Source: Escherichia phage BEC1-17. Taken from it: 53,042 nt of DNA. How positions within the stretch are numbered: position 1 is the stretch's first letter; each line of letters begins with the position of its first letter. The translations under genes and the position numbers were made by a program. The notes beneath the pieces were generated by a model that worked only from the letters and a program-made list of their open reading frames with translations, had not been told where the DNA came from and did not search any database. Of the stretch, positions 43,458-53,042 are shown piece after piece. Location: sequence record MN158218. One strand, written 5' to 3'.

Positions 43458-44906
43458 TTACCGTCCCATATTTATTTTGAGCTTGGTAGTATAACGGTTG
43501 ATGCCACGCAACACCATGTAACGACAATCATCGTATACGTGGTCTTCAGAGTTCGTGTCGACATCTTCCGTGTTGTTCTTGTCACGCGGCAGAACCGGCA
43601 ACGTGTTTATGGCTGCTGGACAGTTTTCCATGAAATAAATGCCCGGCTTTTCCGTTTCGTCCATCTTAACATTTTTCAGAAGCTGACGGAATAGCTCTAA
43701 GCCATTTATTCTCGAACCTTGTGACTTGTCGGCCTTGACCCAGGTTACGCCTTCGTCTTCCATTTTCTTCGCGATAGTCTCAACGTCTTTTTCCTTGCAC
43801 GCATAAATCTGACTATCCGCCGGACCAGGATTAACGTTGCTTTGAATCCAGCCACCAGCCTGCAGATTTTCCTGTAGGCGAAGAACACCTTGAGCGACTT
43901 CGGCAGCAGATAATTTAATACCCCTGTTAGCTTCTTTTTCAGAGCACCCATACCATTCAGCTATACGTATAATTGAACCACGCGGAATAAAGTACTCATT
44001 GCCTTCGTCGTCTGTAAGCGAGGCGCCATTTGCAATAGCCCAGATACCAACAGAGAACGGGTGAGTAGAACCCCAGTCGAGAGAACGTTCGATAGTCCAG
44101 CCTTTCGGAATACGCATACGAGGCAGAATACACTTGGTTGACCATACATCGTCGAGTGCACCACCTGCAACAATATCCCAGTCGCCTTCTTTCATCGCGG
44201 CAACAAGTGCCGGGTCACCAAGACCTTCAAGGCGGTCGCCGTAGTCAGGGTCGTTTTCCATCAACGTAGGGTTATCAGTCATCTTAGCCGGTATGTACTG
44301 ACGCGCCATACCGCCTTCGCGTTTTTCCTGCTTAACGATTTTCATAGGAGGAGCAGCAGTTACGAAAGTACGCTTAACCCAGTTGTGACCAACACCACCG
44401 GGGTTTGACCCACAAAAGATGAGTGGCAGAGGCCGGAAAAAGTTCTCAGGTACTTTGAGAGCACCGAGTCGGACACGGTTACGCAAGAAGCGGTACATCG
44501 TTTCTGTGAAGTGAGTAAGCTCATCCATCAGCAGAACGTGAATCTCCGCACCCTGGTAGGTATAAATATCTTTTTCATACTGGAGGTGACAGAGCTTGAT
44601 GTTCGCACCATTCCAGAATTTGATAGTGTTGCTCGAATAGTTAATCTTACACTTGCCAGCTTTGCACATACCATCCAGCAAGGCAGGATAACTTGTGGGG
44701 CCGACCATGTGGTTAGCCGTAAGGTCGTTATAGTTTCGGCGGAAAAGGTAAATCTGCAAGTCAGGTATCATGCAGCACATGATAATTGACATTACACGCA
44801 TAAGGTGAGACTTACCACCACCAGCAGCACCGCCGTACAGAATCTCAGTTGCCTGAGACCGCAGAGCGGCACCTTGTCTGTCATGCAGGTGAAAGTCAAG
44901 ATTCAT
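43458..44906 (-). CDS. terminase large subunit
   Basis: Walker A YGGAAGGGKSH, Walker B-like VLLMDELTHF, C-terminal nuclease-type acidic residues. Confidence 0.85.
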   Translation of the reverse strand: MNLDFHLHDRQGAALRSQATEILYGGAAGGGKSHLMRVMSIIMCCMIPDLQIYLFRRNYNDLTANHMVGPTSYPALLDGMCKAGKCKINYSSNTIKFWNGANIKLCHLQYEKDIYTYQGAEIHVLLMDELTHFTETMYRFLRNRVRLGALKVPENFFRPLPLIFCGSNPGGVGHNWVKRTFVTAAPPMKIVKQEKREGGMARQYIPAKMTDNPTLMENDPDYGDRLEGLGDPALVAAMKEGDWDIVAGGALDDVWSTKCILPRMRIPKGWTIERSLDWGSTHPFSVGIWAIANGASLTDDEGNEYFIPRGSIIRIAEWYGCSEKEANRGIKLSAAEVAQGVLRLQENLQAGGWIQSNVNPGPADSQIYACKEKDVETIAKKMEDEGVTWVKADKSQGSRINGLELFRQLLKNVKMDETEKPGIYFMENCPAAINTLPVLPRDKNNTEDVDTNSEDHVYDDCRYMVLRGINRYTTKLKINMGR

Positions 44907-44909
44907 TTA

Positions 44910-45200
44910 TTACTCTTCCCCAGTAGTATCTACCACTTTCTGGTCACCGATTGTAATGTTCAGGTTGACACCGTTGCCGGACAGGTTCTGGTCGATGTCT
45001 GCTTTGACAACGGATTCTTTCAGCTTAGGATACATGTACGGCATAACACCCAGTGCGCCATCCATCATTGCTTTGTAGTCGTCTTCACGTTCAGCAAGTA
45101 TGATAGCTCGTTGCATAACTTCCAACGGGTCCAGCTGGATACGTCGCATCGTGGCCAACAGCTCTTCTGTTGCCTCACGGGTTTTTTTCGGTTTTGCCAT
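44910..45200 (-). CDS. terminase small subunit candidate
   Basis: 96 aa immediately upstream of large terminase with GAGGA RBS; position only. Confidence 0.3.
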   Translation of the reverse strand: MAKPKKTREATEELLATMRRIQLDPLEVMQRAIILAEREDDYKAMMDGALGVMPYMYPKLKESVVKADIDQNLSGNGVNLNITIGDQKVVDTTGEE

Positions 45201-46890: not shown

Positions 46891-47561
46891 TTGTGTAAAC
46901 TCCTGTAGCGTTGTATCAGCACTTGTTTGTTATCAACATATTCATCATTATAAGTAAAGTCGCTATCAATGTACATCATTAATTTGCTACAATCCATTAA
47001 AATATCACTTGGACCTGATTGCTTGATTGTACTGATAAACATGTTGTCGATACGGAGTAAGTCTTTTGCATGCTCTTCAAGGGCCGAAAGTATCAACTCG
47101 GCACCGCCTACAATCCAGACGTCAGTGCCTCTTGATTCAAGGTCTGCTGCCATCTCACCCAAATTATTGTAGCCTTCTGAAGCCATAATCTGACGAGATA
47201 CCGGCAGCAGTATTCTGTGGGCTGACATAGGCAGACTCATAGTCATATACGTGTTACGACCGGCTAACAATACACTATGCCCTACCATTTTTACCGTTAC
47301 ATCTGCTATCATGTTTCGCAACTGGTCATTTGGGAATTGTCCACGTAGTTGCTGATATGCATTATAGCCTGGTTCTGTCGCAACTGAATTAGTCATAGTC
47401 CTGAAAAAGAGCATGTCTGACGGACATTTCCAGGGGAGACCTGATTTAGGAAGCGCACGAACCTCTTCCATAGTCTTGCATGAGTCAACCTGATGCTTCA
47501 TAAACTCCGGAGATAACCCAAATTCCCCATTTTGGCCCATTGCAAAGATAATATTAATCAC
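46887..47561 (-). CDS. dihydrofolate reductase
   Basis: IIFAMGQNGEFG ... LPW ... LLAGRNTY ... WIVGGAELI matches DHFR motif order. Confidence 0.6.
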   Translation of the reverse strand: MINIIFAMGQNGEFGLSPEFMKHQVDSCKTMEEVRALPKSGLPWKCPSDMLFFRTMTNSVATEPGYNAYQQLRGQFPNDQLRNMIADVTVKMVGHSVLLAGRNTYMTMSLPMSAHRILLPVSRQIMASEGYNNLGEMAADLESRGTDVWIVGGAELILSALEEHAKDLLRIDNMFISTIKQSGPSDILMDCSKLMMYIDSDFTYNDEYVDNKQVLIQRYRSLHK

Positions 47562-48039
47562 CTAAAAAGCCCCCAGTAGTGTCAGTCAAAAGCGAGTTCA
47601 TAACGTCTTGTGGCAGTATCACAGGATGGTTACCTGTTTCGATTTTTGGCTTATGTTTTGGCGCTTTTTTGCGCTCCAGGTACTCATCATGGGCCTTACA
47701 AATGGCATTTACGATGAAATCATGCTGATATGCGTACCATTCATCGTTTTCTGGGTCGTATTTAAGGCCAACATAGTTCATCAGCGATGACATTACGTGA
47801 ATGCCTTCGTGGGAAATGGTGTTGTACTTCAGGTCGTCCGGGTGGTACAGTTCGACGACTATTAGCAGGTACGGATAATTAACGCGAGAGAACGTAAAAG
47901 TAGATGCATTACGCGTTTCCCGGTCATTCCAGTTGCCAAAATCAGGCAAATCCATCAGTTTTTGGAGCTCTTCGTGCTCTTTTTCGCTGCAAACGACAGC
48001 CAATTGAGGCGGATATGGCTCTAATTGAACAATTTTCAT
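47554..48039 (-). CDS. putative HExxH zinc metallopeptidase-like protein
   Basis: HEGIH motif in ~161-aa protein; start uncertain (GTG 48051 or ATG 48039). Confidence 0.35.
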   Translation of the reverse strand: MKIVQLEPYPPQLAVVCSEKEHEELQKLMDLPDFGNWNDRETRNASTFTFSRVNYPYLLIVVELYHPDDLKYNTISHEGIHVMSSLMNYVGLKYDPENDEWYAYQHDFIVNAICKAHDEYLERKKAPKHKPKIETGNHPVILPQDVMNSLLTDTTGGFLGD

Positions 48040-48269
48040 AATGTTACCCACAAGTAGGAGACCGTGAGGCCGTTTGATGATTCACATTAATGATAGCGCG
48101 TGGATGAGAGAAAGTACACCACTTTTTAGTGAGTGTCTACACAGTTCCCGAAAAATATAAAAATTTTTAGAGGGGCTTCACTTATTATTGTGTTAAGCAA
48201 AAGGTTAGCTCCTGTCGTATCAATCTGATGATGATTGGTACTGATAAGGAGAAAATAGAGAAAAAATAA

Positions 48270-48346
48270 AAAATTTTGCTGGCTCCTGGCAGGTAGCACC
48301 CTTGCGAAATTACCCCCCGCCGCACCTATTTCGATTGAAATGATTA
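48270..48346 (+). repeat. direct repeat copy R1 (~77 bp)
   Basis: shares GC(C/T)GGCTCCT ... GCACCC ... CCCCCGCCG ... GATTGA ... ATTAC blocks with R2. Confidence 0.7.
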
Positions 48347-48445
48347 CTCTGGTAACTATTGTGATTGATACAATTACCGTGTGAACTACTTCGGCCGTTA
48401 TAACACAAAGCGTCTATAATTCAGATTGAAATTATATTTTTATAA

Positions 48446-48522
48446 ATAATTTCGCCGGCTCCTTTAAGTGGCACCCCTACGTTACTATAACCCCCGCCGA
48501 CCATTTTGGATTGAGTAATTAC
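48446..48522 (+). repeat. direct repeat copy R2 (~77 bp)
   Basis: about 70 percent identical to R1, same orientation, 176 bp downstream. Confidence 0.7.
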
Positions 48523-48859
48523 ATGCGAAACTATATCAATTGCATACGAGAACCACTCTCAATCGCAAGTGATTATCATTTCTAAAAACTTGCATAAACT
48601 TGCAATTCTTTTATGTACAACATTGATTGACTGGCCTATAATTATTACATCAAGACGAATGATGAATGTGTCAAGCGTCTTGTCCGGCGCGCGTCGTCAA
48701 GATGCGCAAATAATAACTTTACCTGGTCGAATAGTACCAGACCGCTCTTTAACAATTTGGTAACATGTTTCTTGTTGATAGTAACGCTGGTAATAGTTTC
48801 AACTAGTGGCTATTGGAAGCAGTAGCCACGCCTGGAAACTAATAGCAGGAGTAACTATT

Positions 48860-49009
48860 ATGAAAGACAACTACACGCTTTGGTATGATTGTAATGAAGG
48901 GCTATGGTGTGTCAACATTAATAATGGACCAGTCCCAGACTTTGAATCAATGGACGTGGAAGATTGTGTTGATTTCATCCAGTCGCAAGTAGTCAAATAT
49001 CAAGGGTAA
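48860..49009 (+). CDS. hypothetical small protein
   Basis: ATG 48860 after AGGAG. Confidence 0.35.
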   Translation: MKDNYTLWYDCNEGLWCVNINNGPVPDFESMDVEDCVDFIQSQVVKYQG

Positions 49010-49023
49010 GAGGGTCATACAAG

Positions 49024-49203
49024 ATGAAAGATTTGAAACTGACTAAAAAAGAAGTTGAGTTATTGGTTGAATTTCTTGACATTTCAATATTTAATGAAAA
49101 GGAACTGCTGGAGGACTGGAAGGAGTCAATTGAAAACTTTGACCCTACTGACCAGGAAGAAAGAGTTGAGCTATTGACCAAAATACTTAACAAATTGAAG
49201 TGA
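49024..49203 (+). CDS. small protein, MKDLKLT-family paralog 1 (59 aa; below the ORF-track cut-off)
   Basis: own translation: MKDLKLTKKEVELLVEFLD...; RBS AAGAGGG. Confidence 0.4.
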   Translation: MKDLKLTKKEVELLVEFLDISIFNEKELLEDWKESIENFDPTDQEERVELLTKILNKLK

Positions 49204-49210
49204 TTTCAAT

Positions 49211-49237
49211 CATGACAGCTTGACAAAAGTTGTCATG
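49211..49237 (+). terminator. palindromic hairpin CATGACA...TGTCATG followed by TTTGG
   Basis: 7-bp outer arms and inner TGACAA/TTGTCA arms, 8 nt after stop codon. Confidence 0.35.
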
Positions 49238-49298
49238 TTTGGACTTACTTGCCAGGGATTGGCGCTTACCAAAATTCTATTGACGAGGATACATCAAA

Positions 49299-49865
49299 AT
49301 GACTGCTACTAACTACGTTTACCTGACTTCCGCCTTTTCTGTCGAGTCTGTAAAATCTGGTCTGACTACTGAAAGTCTTGGGACTATTGTAGTGCAGATG
49401 GATAGCCTGCAGTACTTTGCCAATAACCAGATCATTAAGATGATCAAGTCCCTTAATGATGAAAGTTCTGTAAGTGTCAAAGACTCAAAAGAAGTGCTGG
49501 TGAAAGCCCTATTTGATGAGCTTAACCAACTGGAAGTTGAAGAGGTCAAAGTTGCGGCATCACGTGCATCTGCAGGTGGCACCCGCAAAACTTCATCCGG
49601 TCCGTCAACCAAAGATACCTGCTATGCAGTATTCAAGGATTACAATTTGATGGACAAAGAAGATTCCAAATTGGCGCTGGCTGATGCCATGAAAGCCTGT
49701 GGGATGGAAGCGGATGATATTAGGGCAAAACGTGTTGTCCAATCATATATGTCATACTACCGTAATGATGTAAAATCTGGTAAAGTGACTGACGGCAAAT
49801 CAGTAACAGGCAAAAAACCTGAAGCTGAAGAAAAACCTGAAATTGAAGAACAAGAAACTGAGTAA
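49299..49865 (+). CDS. hypothetical protein
   Basis: 188-aa ORF. Confidence 0.45.
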   Translation: MTATNYVYLTSAFSVESVKSGLTTESLGTIVVQMDSLQYFANNQIIKMIKSLNDESSVSVKDSKEVLVKALFDELNQLEVEEVKVAASRASAGGTRKTSSGPSTKDTCYAVFKDYNLMDKEDSKLALADAMKACGMEADDIRAKRVVQSYMSYYRNDVKSGKVTDGKSVTGKKPEAEEKPEIEEQETE

Positions 49866-49929
49866 TTTTTGAGATGGCACTCAAGTAGTGCCATCAATTG
49901 AAATTATTCACAATCAACAGGAGAGAAAC

Positions 49930-50088
49930 ATGCTTAAAATCAAACTGACCAAAGACCAGGCGATGGCTTTGCGGGATATGATGATTGAGTTAGAGAAGAT
50001 GGGCACTTTTTCTGATAGTTCTCACACTTCAACTCTTGATTATATCGTTGAAACCATTGACGACAAATTTTCAGGTTCTGAGGAGTAA
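49930..50088 (+). CDS. small protein, MKDLKLT-family paralog 2
   Basis: MLKIKLTKDQAMALRDMMIELEK...; RBS AGGAGAGAAAC-ATG. Confidence 0.4.
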   Translation: MLKIKLTKDQAMALRDMMIELEKMGTFSDSSHTSTLDYIVETIDDKFSGSEE

Positions 50089-50093
50089 TCAAA

Positions 50094-50351
50094 ATGACTG
50101 ATATTGAGATGAAAAAAGAGCTGGACTTTTATGCTGAGCAGTATTGGGCTGAATGGGATGAAGGTTCACAAGAATTTGCGGAACTGGTGATAGATTCAGG
50201 AATTGATGAAGTGCGCCAACACGCCTACATCATCAACATGAATCTGGCGTCAATTATGGGTATCATCGCCAGCGAATTTTCTGATGGCGAGCGGGACCAT
50301 GAAGACGTTGTAAGACTGGCAAAAGTTATGGCTTGGGTGGATGCATTATGA
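50094..50351 (+). CDS. hypothetical protein
   Basis: 85-aa ORF; ATGA coupling with next gene. Confidence 0.4.
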   Translation: MTDIEMKKELDFYAEQYWAEWDEGSQEFAELVIDSGIDEVRQHAYIINMNLASIMGIIASEFSDGERDHEDVVRLAKVMAWVDAL

Positions 50352-50521
50352 AAGATCTGAAATTGACTGAAGACGAATTGGCGCACCTGATTGAATTACT
50401 GGAATCAAATGCCCAGATAGTCAAAGATCAAATATCTGATGCGGTTGGCGGTTCCAAAGAGTTTGATAACTTGATGGAAGATTTCCGGCTGACAATTCAG
50501 ATCGCAACAAAGTTAGTATAG
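50348..50521 (+). CDS. small protein, MKDLKLT-family paralog 3
   Basis: MKDLKLTEDELAHLIELLES... Confidence 0.4.
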   Translation: MKDLKLTEDELAHLIELLESNAQIVKDQISDAVGGSKEFDNLMEDFRLTIQIATKLV

Positions 50522-50589
50522 TTTCAACAATGAACTATCCAAAGTTGTGATAGTTCATGATTGAAATTATATCAATAGGAGAGAGAAAC

Positions 50590-50979
50590 ATGTACAGTGC
50601 AAAATGCGAAGATGGCACCTATACCGTATATCGTGATGGTGAAGTCATCAAAGTTCTGCCAAACGCCTTCAAGTTTGAGCAATTCATGACGGTGTTGTGG
50701 GAGAACCAGGAGATTAGTCGGGAAGACATTATTGACCTGATGAATCCTTTGATGGGGTACCATCCAATCCGCGAGTTTGACAGTCGTCCAACTTGGTACA
50801 AGCTGGAAGATGGCAAAGTCTGGGAACAAGCCTGGGACAGATTTGAAGGTGGTTACGGCCACTGGACAGTTTATGTCGATGGCGATGATGCCCAACGTTA
50901 CTGGGAGGCAATCAAAAATTGTGCGACCCGGGACGTGACTGATCCGGAATATGACGAGTCAAAATTTGAGGTCAAATGA
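50590..50979 (+). CDS. hypothetical protein
   Basis: ATG 50590 after AGGAGAGAGAAAC. Confidence 0.45.
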   Translation: MYSAKCEDGTYTVYRDGEVIKVLPNAFKFEQFMTVLWENQEISREDIIDLMNPLMGYHPIREFDSRPTWYKLEDGKVWEQAWDRFEGGYGHWTVYVDGDDAQRYWEAIKNCATRDVTDPEYDESKFEVK

Positions 50980-51179
50980 TGCCACTAGTCAAATTTACTA
51001 CGGTAGACCTTGCCAATGGATTGCCACCCAAAGCTGAACAAAAATTCTTGACAGTTGAGGAATGGAATATCTGGTGCCAGTCAGCTCTAAAAGCAGGGGC
51101 TAAACGCACCAATGGTGGAAAAGTGTTTACCCGCTTCAATAAAGAGTGTATAATAATAGTTCAGGTAATGATGGAGTGA
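50976..51179 (+). CDS. hypothetical protein
   Basis: 67-aa ORF coupled to upstream gene. Confidence 0.35.
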   Translation: MMPLVKFTTVDLANGLPPKAEQKFLTVEEWNIWCQSALKAGAKRTNGGKVFTRFNKECIIIVQVMME

Positions 51180-51356
51180 TTCAACAATGAGGATTTGCCA
51201 AAAGTCCTCATGATTGAATTAACCCACAAGTGGAGGCCTTTATGGTCCGCTGTAAACATGTTGTTGAGTATTCTGTTGTGAATCCTGCATATGCTGAAGG
51301 TCGGGCTATGAGGAAGCTGGTTGGGATCTTTCTGATAATTCTTATGGTATTGGCTT

Positions 51357-51602
51357 ATGTTTTCTAAGGATGATTTATATGACATTGCTCGACGTGTTAA
51401 TCAACGCGATTTATCTGGTATTACCGATCTTTTTTCTGCCGGCACTTCTGACGATGCGGTATTACGCGAAGCGGAGCGGCGCCAAGCAGAAATACAAAGA
51501 ACTGCAAGCTGCTGGAATTATCAACCCCCGAAAACTGTACCGTTAACCTGGGTTGACATGACAGTGTGGCTATTGAATAAACTTGGAATCAGGAGCAAAT
51601 AA
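51357..51602 (+). CDS. hypothetical protein
   Basis: 81-aa ORF. Confidence 0.35.
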   Translation: MFSKDDLYDIARRVNQRDLSGITDLFSAGTSDDAVLREAERRQAEIQRTASCWNYQPPKTVPLTWVDMTVWLLNKLGIRSK

Positions 51603-51781
51603 TGTTTAAATTCTTACAACGTAATCCGGTCAAAGGTGGCATGCAATACTGGGTGGACATCCATGGCGGTGAGTATATGATGATCGTCCGCGATGGTAAA
51701 CCTGCTGAAAGCTCTTTCGCTAAAGGTTGCAACGTTTACAACCAATTGTTTGAGTTCCTGGTTGAAGGTGATTACTTGTGA
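51602..51781 (+). CDS. hypothetical small protein (59 aa; below ORF-track cut-off)
   Basis: own translation MFKFLQRNPVKGGMQYWVDIHGG...; TAATG coupling; RBS AGGAG. Confidence 0.3.
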   Translation: MFKFLQRNPVKGGMQYWVDIHGGEYMMIVRDGKPAESSFAKGCNVYNQLFEFLVEGDYL

Positions 51782-51963
51782 TTGGCTTAATCCTGGTAAC
51801 ATGTGTGGCTACTCATGACTGTAGTTACGAAATTGTTGAATCCAAAACTGAATGGACTACCGTTGAACAATGTGCCGCCGATAGTCCATACACCTTACTG
51901 AATCTTGGTATTATCCCTGCCAAAAATCAGCGTGTTATTTGTGACGAGCTGAAACAAGATTAA
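51778..51963 (+). CDS. hypothetical small protein with hydrophobic N-terminus (GTG start)
   Basis: 61-aa ORF overlapping upstream stop. Confidence 0.25.
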   Translation: MIGLILVTCVATHDCSYEIVESKTEWTTVEQCAADSPYTLLNLGIIPAKNQRVICDELKQD

Positions 51964-52391
51964 TTGACGTGATATTGAGTGCCGGGCGCAACGTAATAGT
52001 TGTAGACCCGGCAAAATTGTTCCCATGTTAATTCTACTAGACCCACAAAGAGGCGGTTTGATGCCTCGTTAAAAGTCGTGCCACTTGGAAAGCAGTCAAT
52101 CACATCAGCCTTATTCATCACCACGGTAGGCTGTTTTCTTGGTAGTTCGTATATAAGCACCGGCATCTTGTTCTGGGCCTTTGCCGATGCCGCACACTGT
52201 CTCCACCATGTTCCGATAGACTTGGTATTGTGCTTCTTCAGTTCAACACTGAAAAACGGCACACCCAGCAAGTCATCCCCGCCATTAATAGACTGTTGAA
52301 GATTGCGCTCAACAGTTAATCCGAACGAGCTGTTAAACTTTTTAGCCATTTTACGCTCAAAGTTTTGGCCCTTCTTCCTAATATCAACCAT
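51960..52391 (-). CDS. possible PD-(D/E)XK-type nuclease
   Basis: GGDDLLGVPFFSVELKK fits D-x(n)-E-x-K pattern; basic N-terminus; weak. Confidence 0.3.
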   Translation of the reverse strand: MVDIRKKGQNFERKMAKKFNSSFGLTVERNLQQSINGGDDLLGVPFFSVELKKHNTKSIGTWWRQCAASAKAQNKMPVLIYELPRKQPTVVMNKADVIDCFPSGTTFNEASNRLFVGLVELTWEQFCRVYNYYVAPGTQYHVN

Positions 52392-52584
52392 TATCTGTTA
52401 TCTCCATAAGACGTGCAATTAATTTTTCAAAAGACACACCGTTCTCAGCCTGACGTTTCCAGGTAGTTCTCAACCGGCCAATCAATCGCGCTCTACCCTC
52501 ACCATTGGCTTGAGCATAAGCCCTCAATAAATCTACTTCATCAGCCAATAACAGTATTGCTTTCTTAACGTTTTCATTGTCCAA
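52384..52584 (-). CDS. hypothetical protein
   Basis: 66-aa ORF coupled to downstream gene. Confidence 0.3.
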   Translation of the reverse strand: MDNENVKKAILLLADEVDLLRAYAQANGEGRARLIGRLRTTWKRQAENGVSFEKLIARLMEITDNG

Positions 52585-52621
52585 TTATACAACCTCCAAA
52601 TATTTGTGTTTAATCATATTA

Positions 52622-53042
52622 NNNNNNNNNNNNNNNNNNNNNNNNNNNNNNNNNNNNNNNNNNNNNNNNNNNNNNNNNNNNNNNNNNNNNNNNNNNNNNN
52701 NNNNNNNNNNNNNNNNNNNNNNNNNNNNNNNNNNNNNNNNNNNNNNNNNNGTTGAAGATTGCGCTAAACAGTTAATCCGAACGAGCTGTTAAACNNNNNN
52801 NNNNNNNNNNNNNNNNNNNNNNNNNNNNNNNNNNNNNNNNNNNNNNNNNNNNNNNNNNNNNNNNNNNNNNNNNNNNNNNNNNNNNNNNNNNNNNNNNNNN
52901 NNNNNNNNNNNNNNNNNNNNNNNNNNNNNNNNNNNNNNNNNNNNNNNNNNNNACCCTCACCATTGGCTTGAGCATAAGCCCTCAATAAATCTACNNNAGC
53001 CAATAACAGTATTGCTTTCTTAACGTTTTCATTGTCCAATTA
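52622..53042. other. N-masked segment containing fragments that duplicate 52298-52586 (assembly gap or collapsed repeat)
   Basis: runs of N interrupted by stretches that match 52298-52345 and 52498-52586 with one mismatch. Confidence 0.8.

Follow-up and report, generated by a model that had tools for sequence, protein, structure and literature searches.

Organization of the divergent intergenic region

The window analysed here is the whole of sequence record MN158218 from Escherichia phage BEC1-17 (53,042 nt), which, judged by its matches, is a Rosemountvirus-type phage genome. A 0.8-kb divergent gap separates a leftward operon (47554–48039 and onward) from small early genes that run rightward from 48860. 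We noted that this gap carries a unit of ∼105 nt, present exactly twice and in the same orientation. A profile built from 28 copies in 14 phages placed the first unit, R1, at 48260–48365 (+ strand, nhmmer E = 3e-25) and the second, R2, at 48434–48540 (+ strand, E = 3e-28), with a spacer at 48366–48433. An earlier reading, made from the letters alone and called here the sequence-only reading, had described two imperfect direct repeats of ∼77 bp. Their existence, blocks, coordinates and 176-nt offset were borne out, but the profile extended their length to ∼105 nt.

Each unit starts with an A/T run ahead of the first GC-rich block and ends with AACTAT. The parts of R1 follow one another in the order A6TA6 tract, TTTTGCT^GGCTCCT, GCACCC, ATTACCCCCCGCCGCACC, TTTC, GATTGA, ATTAC and AACTAT, where the caret marks the terminus discussed below. 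The first GC block reads GCTGGCTCCT in R1 (48278–48287) and GCCGGCTCCT in R2 (48454–48463). It is followed by GCACCC (48296–48301 and 48471–48476), by CCCCCGCCG (48314–48322 and 48491–48499) and, later in both units, by GATTGA and ATTAC. The sequence TATAAATA is found at 48441–48448, as had been reported.

R1 and R2 are ∼60% identical, and a 101-nt stretch around R1 compared with R2 gave a z score of 9.1 (5,000 shuffles). When R1 was compared without gaps with both strands of the entire genome, it matched best at R2, and the two long GC blocks had no mismatch-free occurrence elsewhere in the 53 kb. No third full unit was detected in the genome with the 28-copy profile HMM, the other terminus included. 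The motif ATTAC occurs four times in the 290 nt spanning both units (48309, 48343, 48373 and 48518) where 0.35 would be expected, a count that ties with the genome-wide maximum for a window of that size. A similar ATTAC/GTAAC series follows R1 in the relatives, and the ATTAC copies are possible sub-sites of a recognition unit.

Directly after R2 lies the most conserved non-coding block of the region (48542–48620, + strand), with 85% mean identity across four clades. It ends with two tandem copies of AACTTGCA, one helical turn apart, which abut the −35 element of a predicted sigma-70 early promoter (TGTACA-17-TATAAT, 48614–48642, + strand; 10/12 matches in a consensus scan). What had been taken for a palindrome, AACTTGCATAAACTTGCAA at 48587–48605, is this direct repeat of AACTTGCA. 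The relatives carry TGTACA with TAT(A/T)AT or CATAAT at the same spacing, and the block is a candidate operator or activator site.

Both units and their spacing are conserved in related phages

The region matched 60 phage records with 75–99% identity. Among them were Rosemountvirus members (BP63, UPF_BP2, AV127 and the ‘witcher’ phages), Loughboroughvirus members (ZCSE2, S144, SE4 and AEV23) and the unclassified fHy-Eco03, SE1_KM and Erwinia phage SOI901. Conservation was assessed using 14 aligned phages from several clades together with sewage-metagenome contigs that were found via the flanking protein. Four such contigs carried both units (L028, L029, L031 and L032); as L028 equals L029 in flanking protein and scores, these represent three distinct sequences. 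Scans of IMG/VR with the DNA pattern and with the flanking protein returned already known isolates and nothing further.

Both units were present in all 17 relatives with complete intergenic sequence, metagenome contigs included. The distance between the R1 and R2 cores was 175–176 nt in the 14 phages and ∼174–177 nt in the three distinct contigs according to the nhmmer offsets, with a regular-expression count giving exactly 177 nt for L032. The length of the spacer is thus fixed while its sequence drifts: mean identity across four clades was 59% for the spacer, 59% for R1 and 74% for R2. For the neighbouring protein-coding gene the corresponding DNA identity was 56%, and its protein is ∼40% identical in the most distant relatives. 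The sequence-only reading had counted absence of the repeats from related phages as part of the case against a function; both copies and the spacing were instead kept in every relative examined.

Within one phage, R1 and R2 were no more alike than copies taken from different phages, the exception being a few positions right after the core. The duplication of the unit is, on this comparison of copies, therefore old. No overall concerted evolution of R1 and R2 was seen, and the few co-varying positions just after the cut offer a weak hint of a shared reader for the two units.

R1 coincides with genome termini defined in relatives

The direct terminal repeats (DTRs) of three relatives are defined, and in each of them one boundary falls at the same nucleotide of the R1 first block, GC(T/C)^GG. 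The annotated 3,699-bp repeat of fHy-Eco03 starts at TTGCC^GGCGCA and ends at GCC^GGGGCT of the R1 homologue (L002, 3853|3854); this repeat was determined with PhageTerm and confirmed by digests (PMC8145870). The ends of the vB_SalM_Sz record form an exact 4,263-bp repeat whose boundaries are GCT^GGCTCC, at the same nucleotide, and ACGCT^GGCG. In AEV23 the homologous sites are 3,915 bp apart, in exact agreement with the repeat length published from PhageTerm. A fourth phage, S144, has a non-cohesive physical end in the same intergenic gap, as mapped by restriction with SspI and PacI. The coincidence of R1 with a virion-DNA terminus thus stands, by homology, on three defined repeats and one restriction-mapped end, and the ‘packaging site’ among the functions suggested by the sequence-only reading is supported to this extent. 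No defined terminus of any relative maps to the cut-like core of R2, ATAATTTCGCC^GGCTCC (48446–48462, + strand, cut-like point 48456|48457). That core keeps CGCC^GG in all relatives but SE1_KM, which has GA.

In the window, the site homologous to the three defined boundaries is AAAATTTTGCT^GGCTCC (48270–48286, + strand), and the local sequence is nearly identical to that of Sz. We infer for this isolate a terminus at 48280|48281 (T48280/G48281), a well supported position, with a virion 5′ end that would begin GGCTCC. The units are a real, strongly conserved DNA signal marking a genome end.

At the other boundary of the repeat there is a related cut sequence, an A-tract-TT..GCC^GGC core in mirror orientation. 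Such a sequence was found in 10 relatives, and the window's own site lies inside N runs. When R1, the far boundary and R2 are read from outside towards the repeat, all three conform to A-rich-TT..GC(C/T)^GGC (10 phages). As the two true boundaries are mirror images, both virion 5′ ends would start with GGC. The far boundary lacks a full unit, and complete genomes have exactly two units. The hexamer GCCGGC occurs nine times in the window, so the core alone cannot define an end and flanking information is needed.

The visible part of the predicted direct terminal repeat extends from 48281 to 52621 and includes R2. It carries rightward early genes and a leftward resolvase-like gene, and the early promoter, at a distance of 333 nt from the terminus, points into it. 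Phage nenneke is colinear with the window and 96.7% identical to it in this part; the comparison places the far boundary ∼80 nt beyond 52621, the last readable base, at a mirror site TTTTTCGCT^GGCG, which gives a predicted terminal repeat of ∼4.4 kb. The boundary itself is hidden by N runs and duplicated fragments in 52622–53015. Throughout 52622–53042 the N runs are interspersed with fragments that duplicate parts of 52298–52590. Compared with nenneke and yarpen, this part of the window is missing the second terminal-repeat boundary, an (AAT)n-rich stretch and CCCCC/CCGG blocks.

The ends of several other records were also considered. The LPSEYT record starts 7 nt before the cut, a position that is suggestive and inexact and was not counted as evidence. 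Logan contig L030 extends ∼55 nt past the cut; de Bruijn assemblies need not break at physical ends. The UPF_BP2 record is circular, and its ends carry no terminus information. In the AEV23 record (L011, ∼9307), IS5-transposase/E. coli-like DNA takes over precisely beyond the far cut that is predicted, CCGCC^G; this looks like a chimeric join at a physical end rather than phage sequence.

Just inside the other terminus, a strong sigma-70-like promoter (TTTACA-17-TACAAT) was seen in L014 (9730–9864) and its homologues, 60–90 nt from the end and pointing inward. Both ends of the virion DNA would thus carry inward-facing promoters.

The type of end could be narrowed down. A lambda-type cos site was rejected, given the exact 3.7–4.3 kb terminal repeats of the relatives and the S144 digests, in which fast and slow cooling excluded cohesive ends. 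A headful pac site, with permuted genomes and imprecise ends, was likewise rejected, as the boundaries are exact and homologous in three phages. For one relative, vB_SenM-1 (MT012730), ‘COS’ packaging has been reported from PhageTerm, which conflicts with the repeats of fHy-Eco03, AEV23 and Sz and with the S144 digests. The large terminase gene is at 43458–44906. No small terminase subunit was recognisable, and the 96-aa ORF beside the large terminase gene (44910–45200) had no family match. The publications consulted on the relatives give repeat lengths or an approximate end position, and the sequence of the ends, their mirror arrangement and the duplicated unit are not described there.

Alternative functions for the repeated units

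A transcriptional role was considered for the units, given that they lie in a divergent control region and that the most conserved block and the promoter adjoin R2. They would then be an operator or enhancer for a phage or host regulator of early transcription, controlling the 48614–48642 promoter and perhaps the leftward operon, and the coincidence of R1 with a terminus would be secondary. With a constant ∼17 helical turns between them, two occupied sites would be well placed for looping. However, 333 nt separate R1 from the promoter downstream of it, and at the virion end R1 forms the extreme tip of the sequence. The core at the other terminus, which has no unit after it, is the same as the first block of each unit, and the units lack the dyad symmetry typical of operators. 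We consider this role unlikely. The earlier suggestion of iterated binding sites is compatible with our data, but the likely reader would be the packaging machinery rather than a transcription regulator. Duplication of small RNA genes or of promoters, as had also been suggested, is an extremely improbable explanation of the units. They are GC-rich islands without ORFs, and R2 contains TATAAC with a weak TTTAAG hexamer 17 nt upstream; against this, the −10-like hexamer varies among copies (TATAAC, GATTAC, GTTTAC and AATTAC), its positions are not conserved among clades, and no terminator follows the units. A sigma-70 and terminator scan found nothing in the GC blocks of either unit. Its sole hit touching R1 (TTGAAA-16-TATTGT, 48335–48362, 9/12 matches) falls in the R1 tail, and nothing equivalent was seen in R2. 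ARAGORN found no tRNA or tmRNA, and Rfam searches at permissive E-values gave only chance-level snoRNA and StyR-44 hits, the source of the latter being the rrn-like boxA downstream and not the repeats. Single-sequence folds of both units on both strands were no better than those of shuffled sequences (z = −0.6 to +1.8). RNAalifold with 13 diverse copies predicted no base pairs for the + strand and no more than a trivial hairpin of 5 bp for the − strand, leaving the small RNA suggestion with neither a better-than-shuffle fold nor a consensus structure.

Two further possibilities concern the DNA itself. Linear genomes with terminal repeats form concatemers through those repeats, and the units could belong to an origin of replication or a recombination hot spot located where the repeat begins, used for instance in entry of the phage primase-helicase or in concatemer formation. 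The surroundings are AT-rich and the cumulative GC skew has its minimum at ∼48 kb, but gene orientation also switches at this point and accounts for the minimum just as well, so that the skew favours no particular reading. An origin of the iteron/DnaA type, with at least three iterons and/or DnaA boxes by an AT-rich element, was rejected: there are two units only and no iteron array, no DnaA box (TTWTNCACA) was found in 48000–48900, the genome-wide count of this motif is that expected by chance, and no IHF consensus site was found in the region. In the relatives, a more origin-like AT-rich stretch of simple repeats lies outside the other boundary. An origin role for the units thus seems very unlikely. 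Equally little probability is given to a T5-like cis signal for DNA entry, with the R1/R2 pair acting as an ejection pause or hand-over point, or as a dock for an end-protecting protein, positioned at the inner margin of a terminal repeat with genes for host takeover. At 6.5–7.5% of the virion DNA (3,699/57,011 and 4,263/57,020), the terminal repeat is near the 7.9% of T5 first-step transfer and holds many small early genes. The stop signal of T5 is reported to lie in a large, untranslated, repeat-rich part of the terminal repeat (10.1101/866236). An ordered array of DnaA boxes is described as a conserved hallmark of that signal region; such boxes are absent here, and a T5-type injection stop signal was rejected. 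Furthermore, this phage family is not known to use two-step transfer, and each unit plainly has the end-cutting core as its first block.

A model for end formation

In the reading that we favour, R1 and R2 are probably two copies of one signal, acting at the DNA level, by which the ends of packaged DNA are formed. The packaged genome would be linear, with an exact DTR of ∼4.4 kb and one physical end inside the first block of R1. The other boundary would be defined by the same short core (A-tract, TT, 2–3 nt, GC(C/T)^GGC) in mirrored orientation. Specificity would come from the next ∼85 nt, with the blocks CACC, TTACCCCC, GCCGAC/GCCGCAC, TTTC, ATTAC and AACTAT read by the recognition part of the packaging enzyme, likely a small terminase subunit acting with the large terminase. 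R1 would then combine an end-cutting site with a recognition module, while R2 would be a second, apparently uncut recognition unit 175–177 nt further in. R2 may help to dock or orient the enzyme, in the manner of the repeated small-subunit sites flanking the cut in lambda cosB or SPP1 pac. Taken together, R1 and R2 would form a bipartite packaging and end-formation signal upstream of the early promoter.

The mirrored arrangement of the cores is consistent with strand-specific nicking at both boundaries and hence with a Watson-type staggered-nick scheme. In such a scheme, opposite strands would be nicked at both boundaries of a single repeat copy in the concatemer, and strand-displacement synthesis would then duplicate the repeat. 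A genome-end signal would account for the higher conservation of this intergenic region relative to the genes beside it.

Conservation is higher in R2 than in R1, and after R2 come the most conserved block and the early promoter. This leaves room for a transcriptional or DNA-entry role, and the principal task of R2 could be transcriptional or of another kind. It is conceivable, though quite unlikely, that the R1–R2 pair is a bipartite cis element that also acts at DNA entry, in a T5-like two-step process without DnaA boxes in a 53-kb myovirus lineage. The terminal repeat (∼7% of the genome, with small early genes and inward promoters at both ends) would enter first, and the uncut R2 with the adjacent ultra-conserved block at the inner edge of the repeat would pause or hand over the transfer. 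In a milder version of this reading, the mirrored cores could be strand-specific nick sites by which staggered nicking duplicates the 4-kb repeat, with R2 as a measuring anchor.

Comparison with known systems

The closest parallels to the proposed end-formation signal are exact-end packaging in T7 and T3 and the 12-bp inverted repeats of Twort-like phages. T7 and T3 have exact ends and pac elements, and their terminal repeat is duplicated from a single concatemer copy. As in the phages studied here, unique sequence-specific ends bound a direct terminal repeat, short repeated elements lie by the repeat boundary and are followed by strong inward early promoters, and the repeat must be duplicated from the single copy in concatemers. 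The repeat described here differs in being ∼4 kb with a whole early gene cluster, rather than 160–230 bp, and its sequence is unrelated; instead of a heptamer array, the signal consists of two ∼105-nt units with a fixed distance between them. The cleavage sites of T3 have been described (PMC3896407). Since no phage RNA polymerase is encoded (PMC7432712), no dependence on one would be expected here, unlike in T7 and T3.

Twort-like (phage K-type) staphylococcal myoviruses have 12-bp inverted repeats at both extremities of the non-redundant genome (PMC7596081). The likeness is in a short sequence mirrored at both terminal-repeat boundaries, in our case A-tract-TT..GC(C/T)^GGC. The sequence and the lineage are different, and here one boundary also has a long recognition unit, of which a second copy lies 176 nt farther inside. 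The T5 injection stop region has a shared layout, namely an untranslated repeat-rich region, a long terminal repeat with early genes and a similar genome fraction. The DnaA boxes described for T5 are lacking here, and R1 coincides with the terminus itself.

The division between a core that is insufficient on its own and repeated recognition elements spread over 100–200 bp is also seen in lambda cosN/cosB and in SPP1 pac (pacL/pacC/pacR). In lambda cos and SPP1 pac, repeated recognition elements flanking the cut position the enzyme. The present phages differ in that cohesive ends are excluded by the S144 digests and that the ends are exact, not headful or permuted; binding of terminase to the units is putative.

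Records of Rosemountvirus, Loughboroughvirus and unclassified members of this family, many of which have been proposed for biocontrol of Salmonella or E. coli, have mostly been deposited without the terminal repeat and opened at arbitrary points. The end rule that emerges, A-tract-TT..GC(C/T)^GGC at both boundaries with an R1/R2 pair marking one of them, would allow the true ends and the repeat length to be predicted from sequence alone; for AEV23 it reproduced the published value exactly. The rule would also give studies on the cutting and duplication of long terminal repeats a defined target, and it marks sequences to preserve when these phages are engineered.

The early leader and the flanking gene

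Several features adjoining the units were noted. The leader of the early operon contains GCTCTTTAACAATTT (48744–48758), which over 15 nt exactly matches boxA, the antitermination element in the leader of E. coli rrnH. This boxA-like sequence is invariant in all relatives, and a hairpin at 48723–48740 precedes it in the boxB position. The arrangement suggests that early transcription may use rrn-type (NusB/S10-dependent) antitermination.

Further downstream, GTGGCTA...TAGCCAC (48806–48829), listed as a palindrome in the sequence-only reading, is a true stem-loop and is situated just upstream of the ribosome-binding site of the first early gene. The stem has compensatory changes among clades (GTGACTA/TAGTCAC and GAGACTA/TAGTCTC), and a metagenome contig has a 19-nt insertion in the loop. 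On the pattern of these changes, it is a genuine conserved hairpin of RNA or DNA.

On the other side of the gap, the gene at 47554–48039 (− strand) is labelled ‘putative Ku protein’ in S144, and its product is virion-associated in fHy-Eco03. No Pfam or PDB sequence match to Ku or Gam was found for the protein, and its AlphaFold model, at pLDDT 52, did not reach the quality that a search by fold requires; the Ku label therefore seems unverified. An invariant HEGIH motif (HExxH) is present in the protein.

Members of this lytic phage family were also found in two ‘complete’ E. coli assemblies, NZ_CP067310.1 (L034) and NZ_JBVNBN010000003.1, where they are presented as circular ‘plasmids’ of ∼53 kb.
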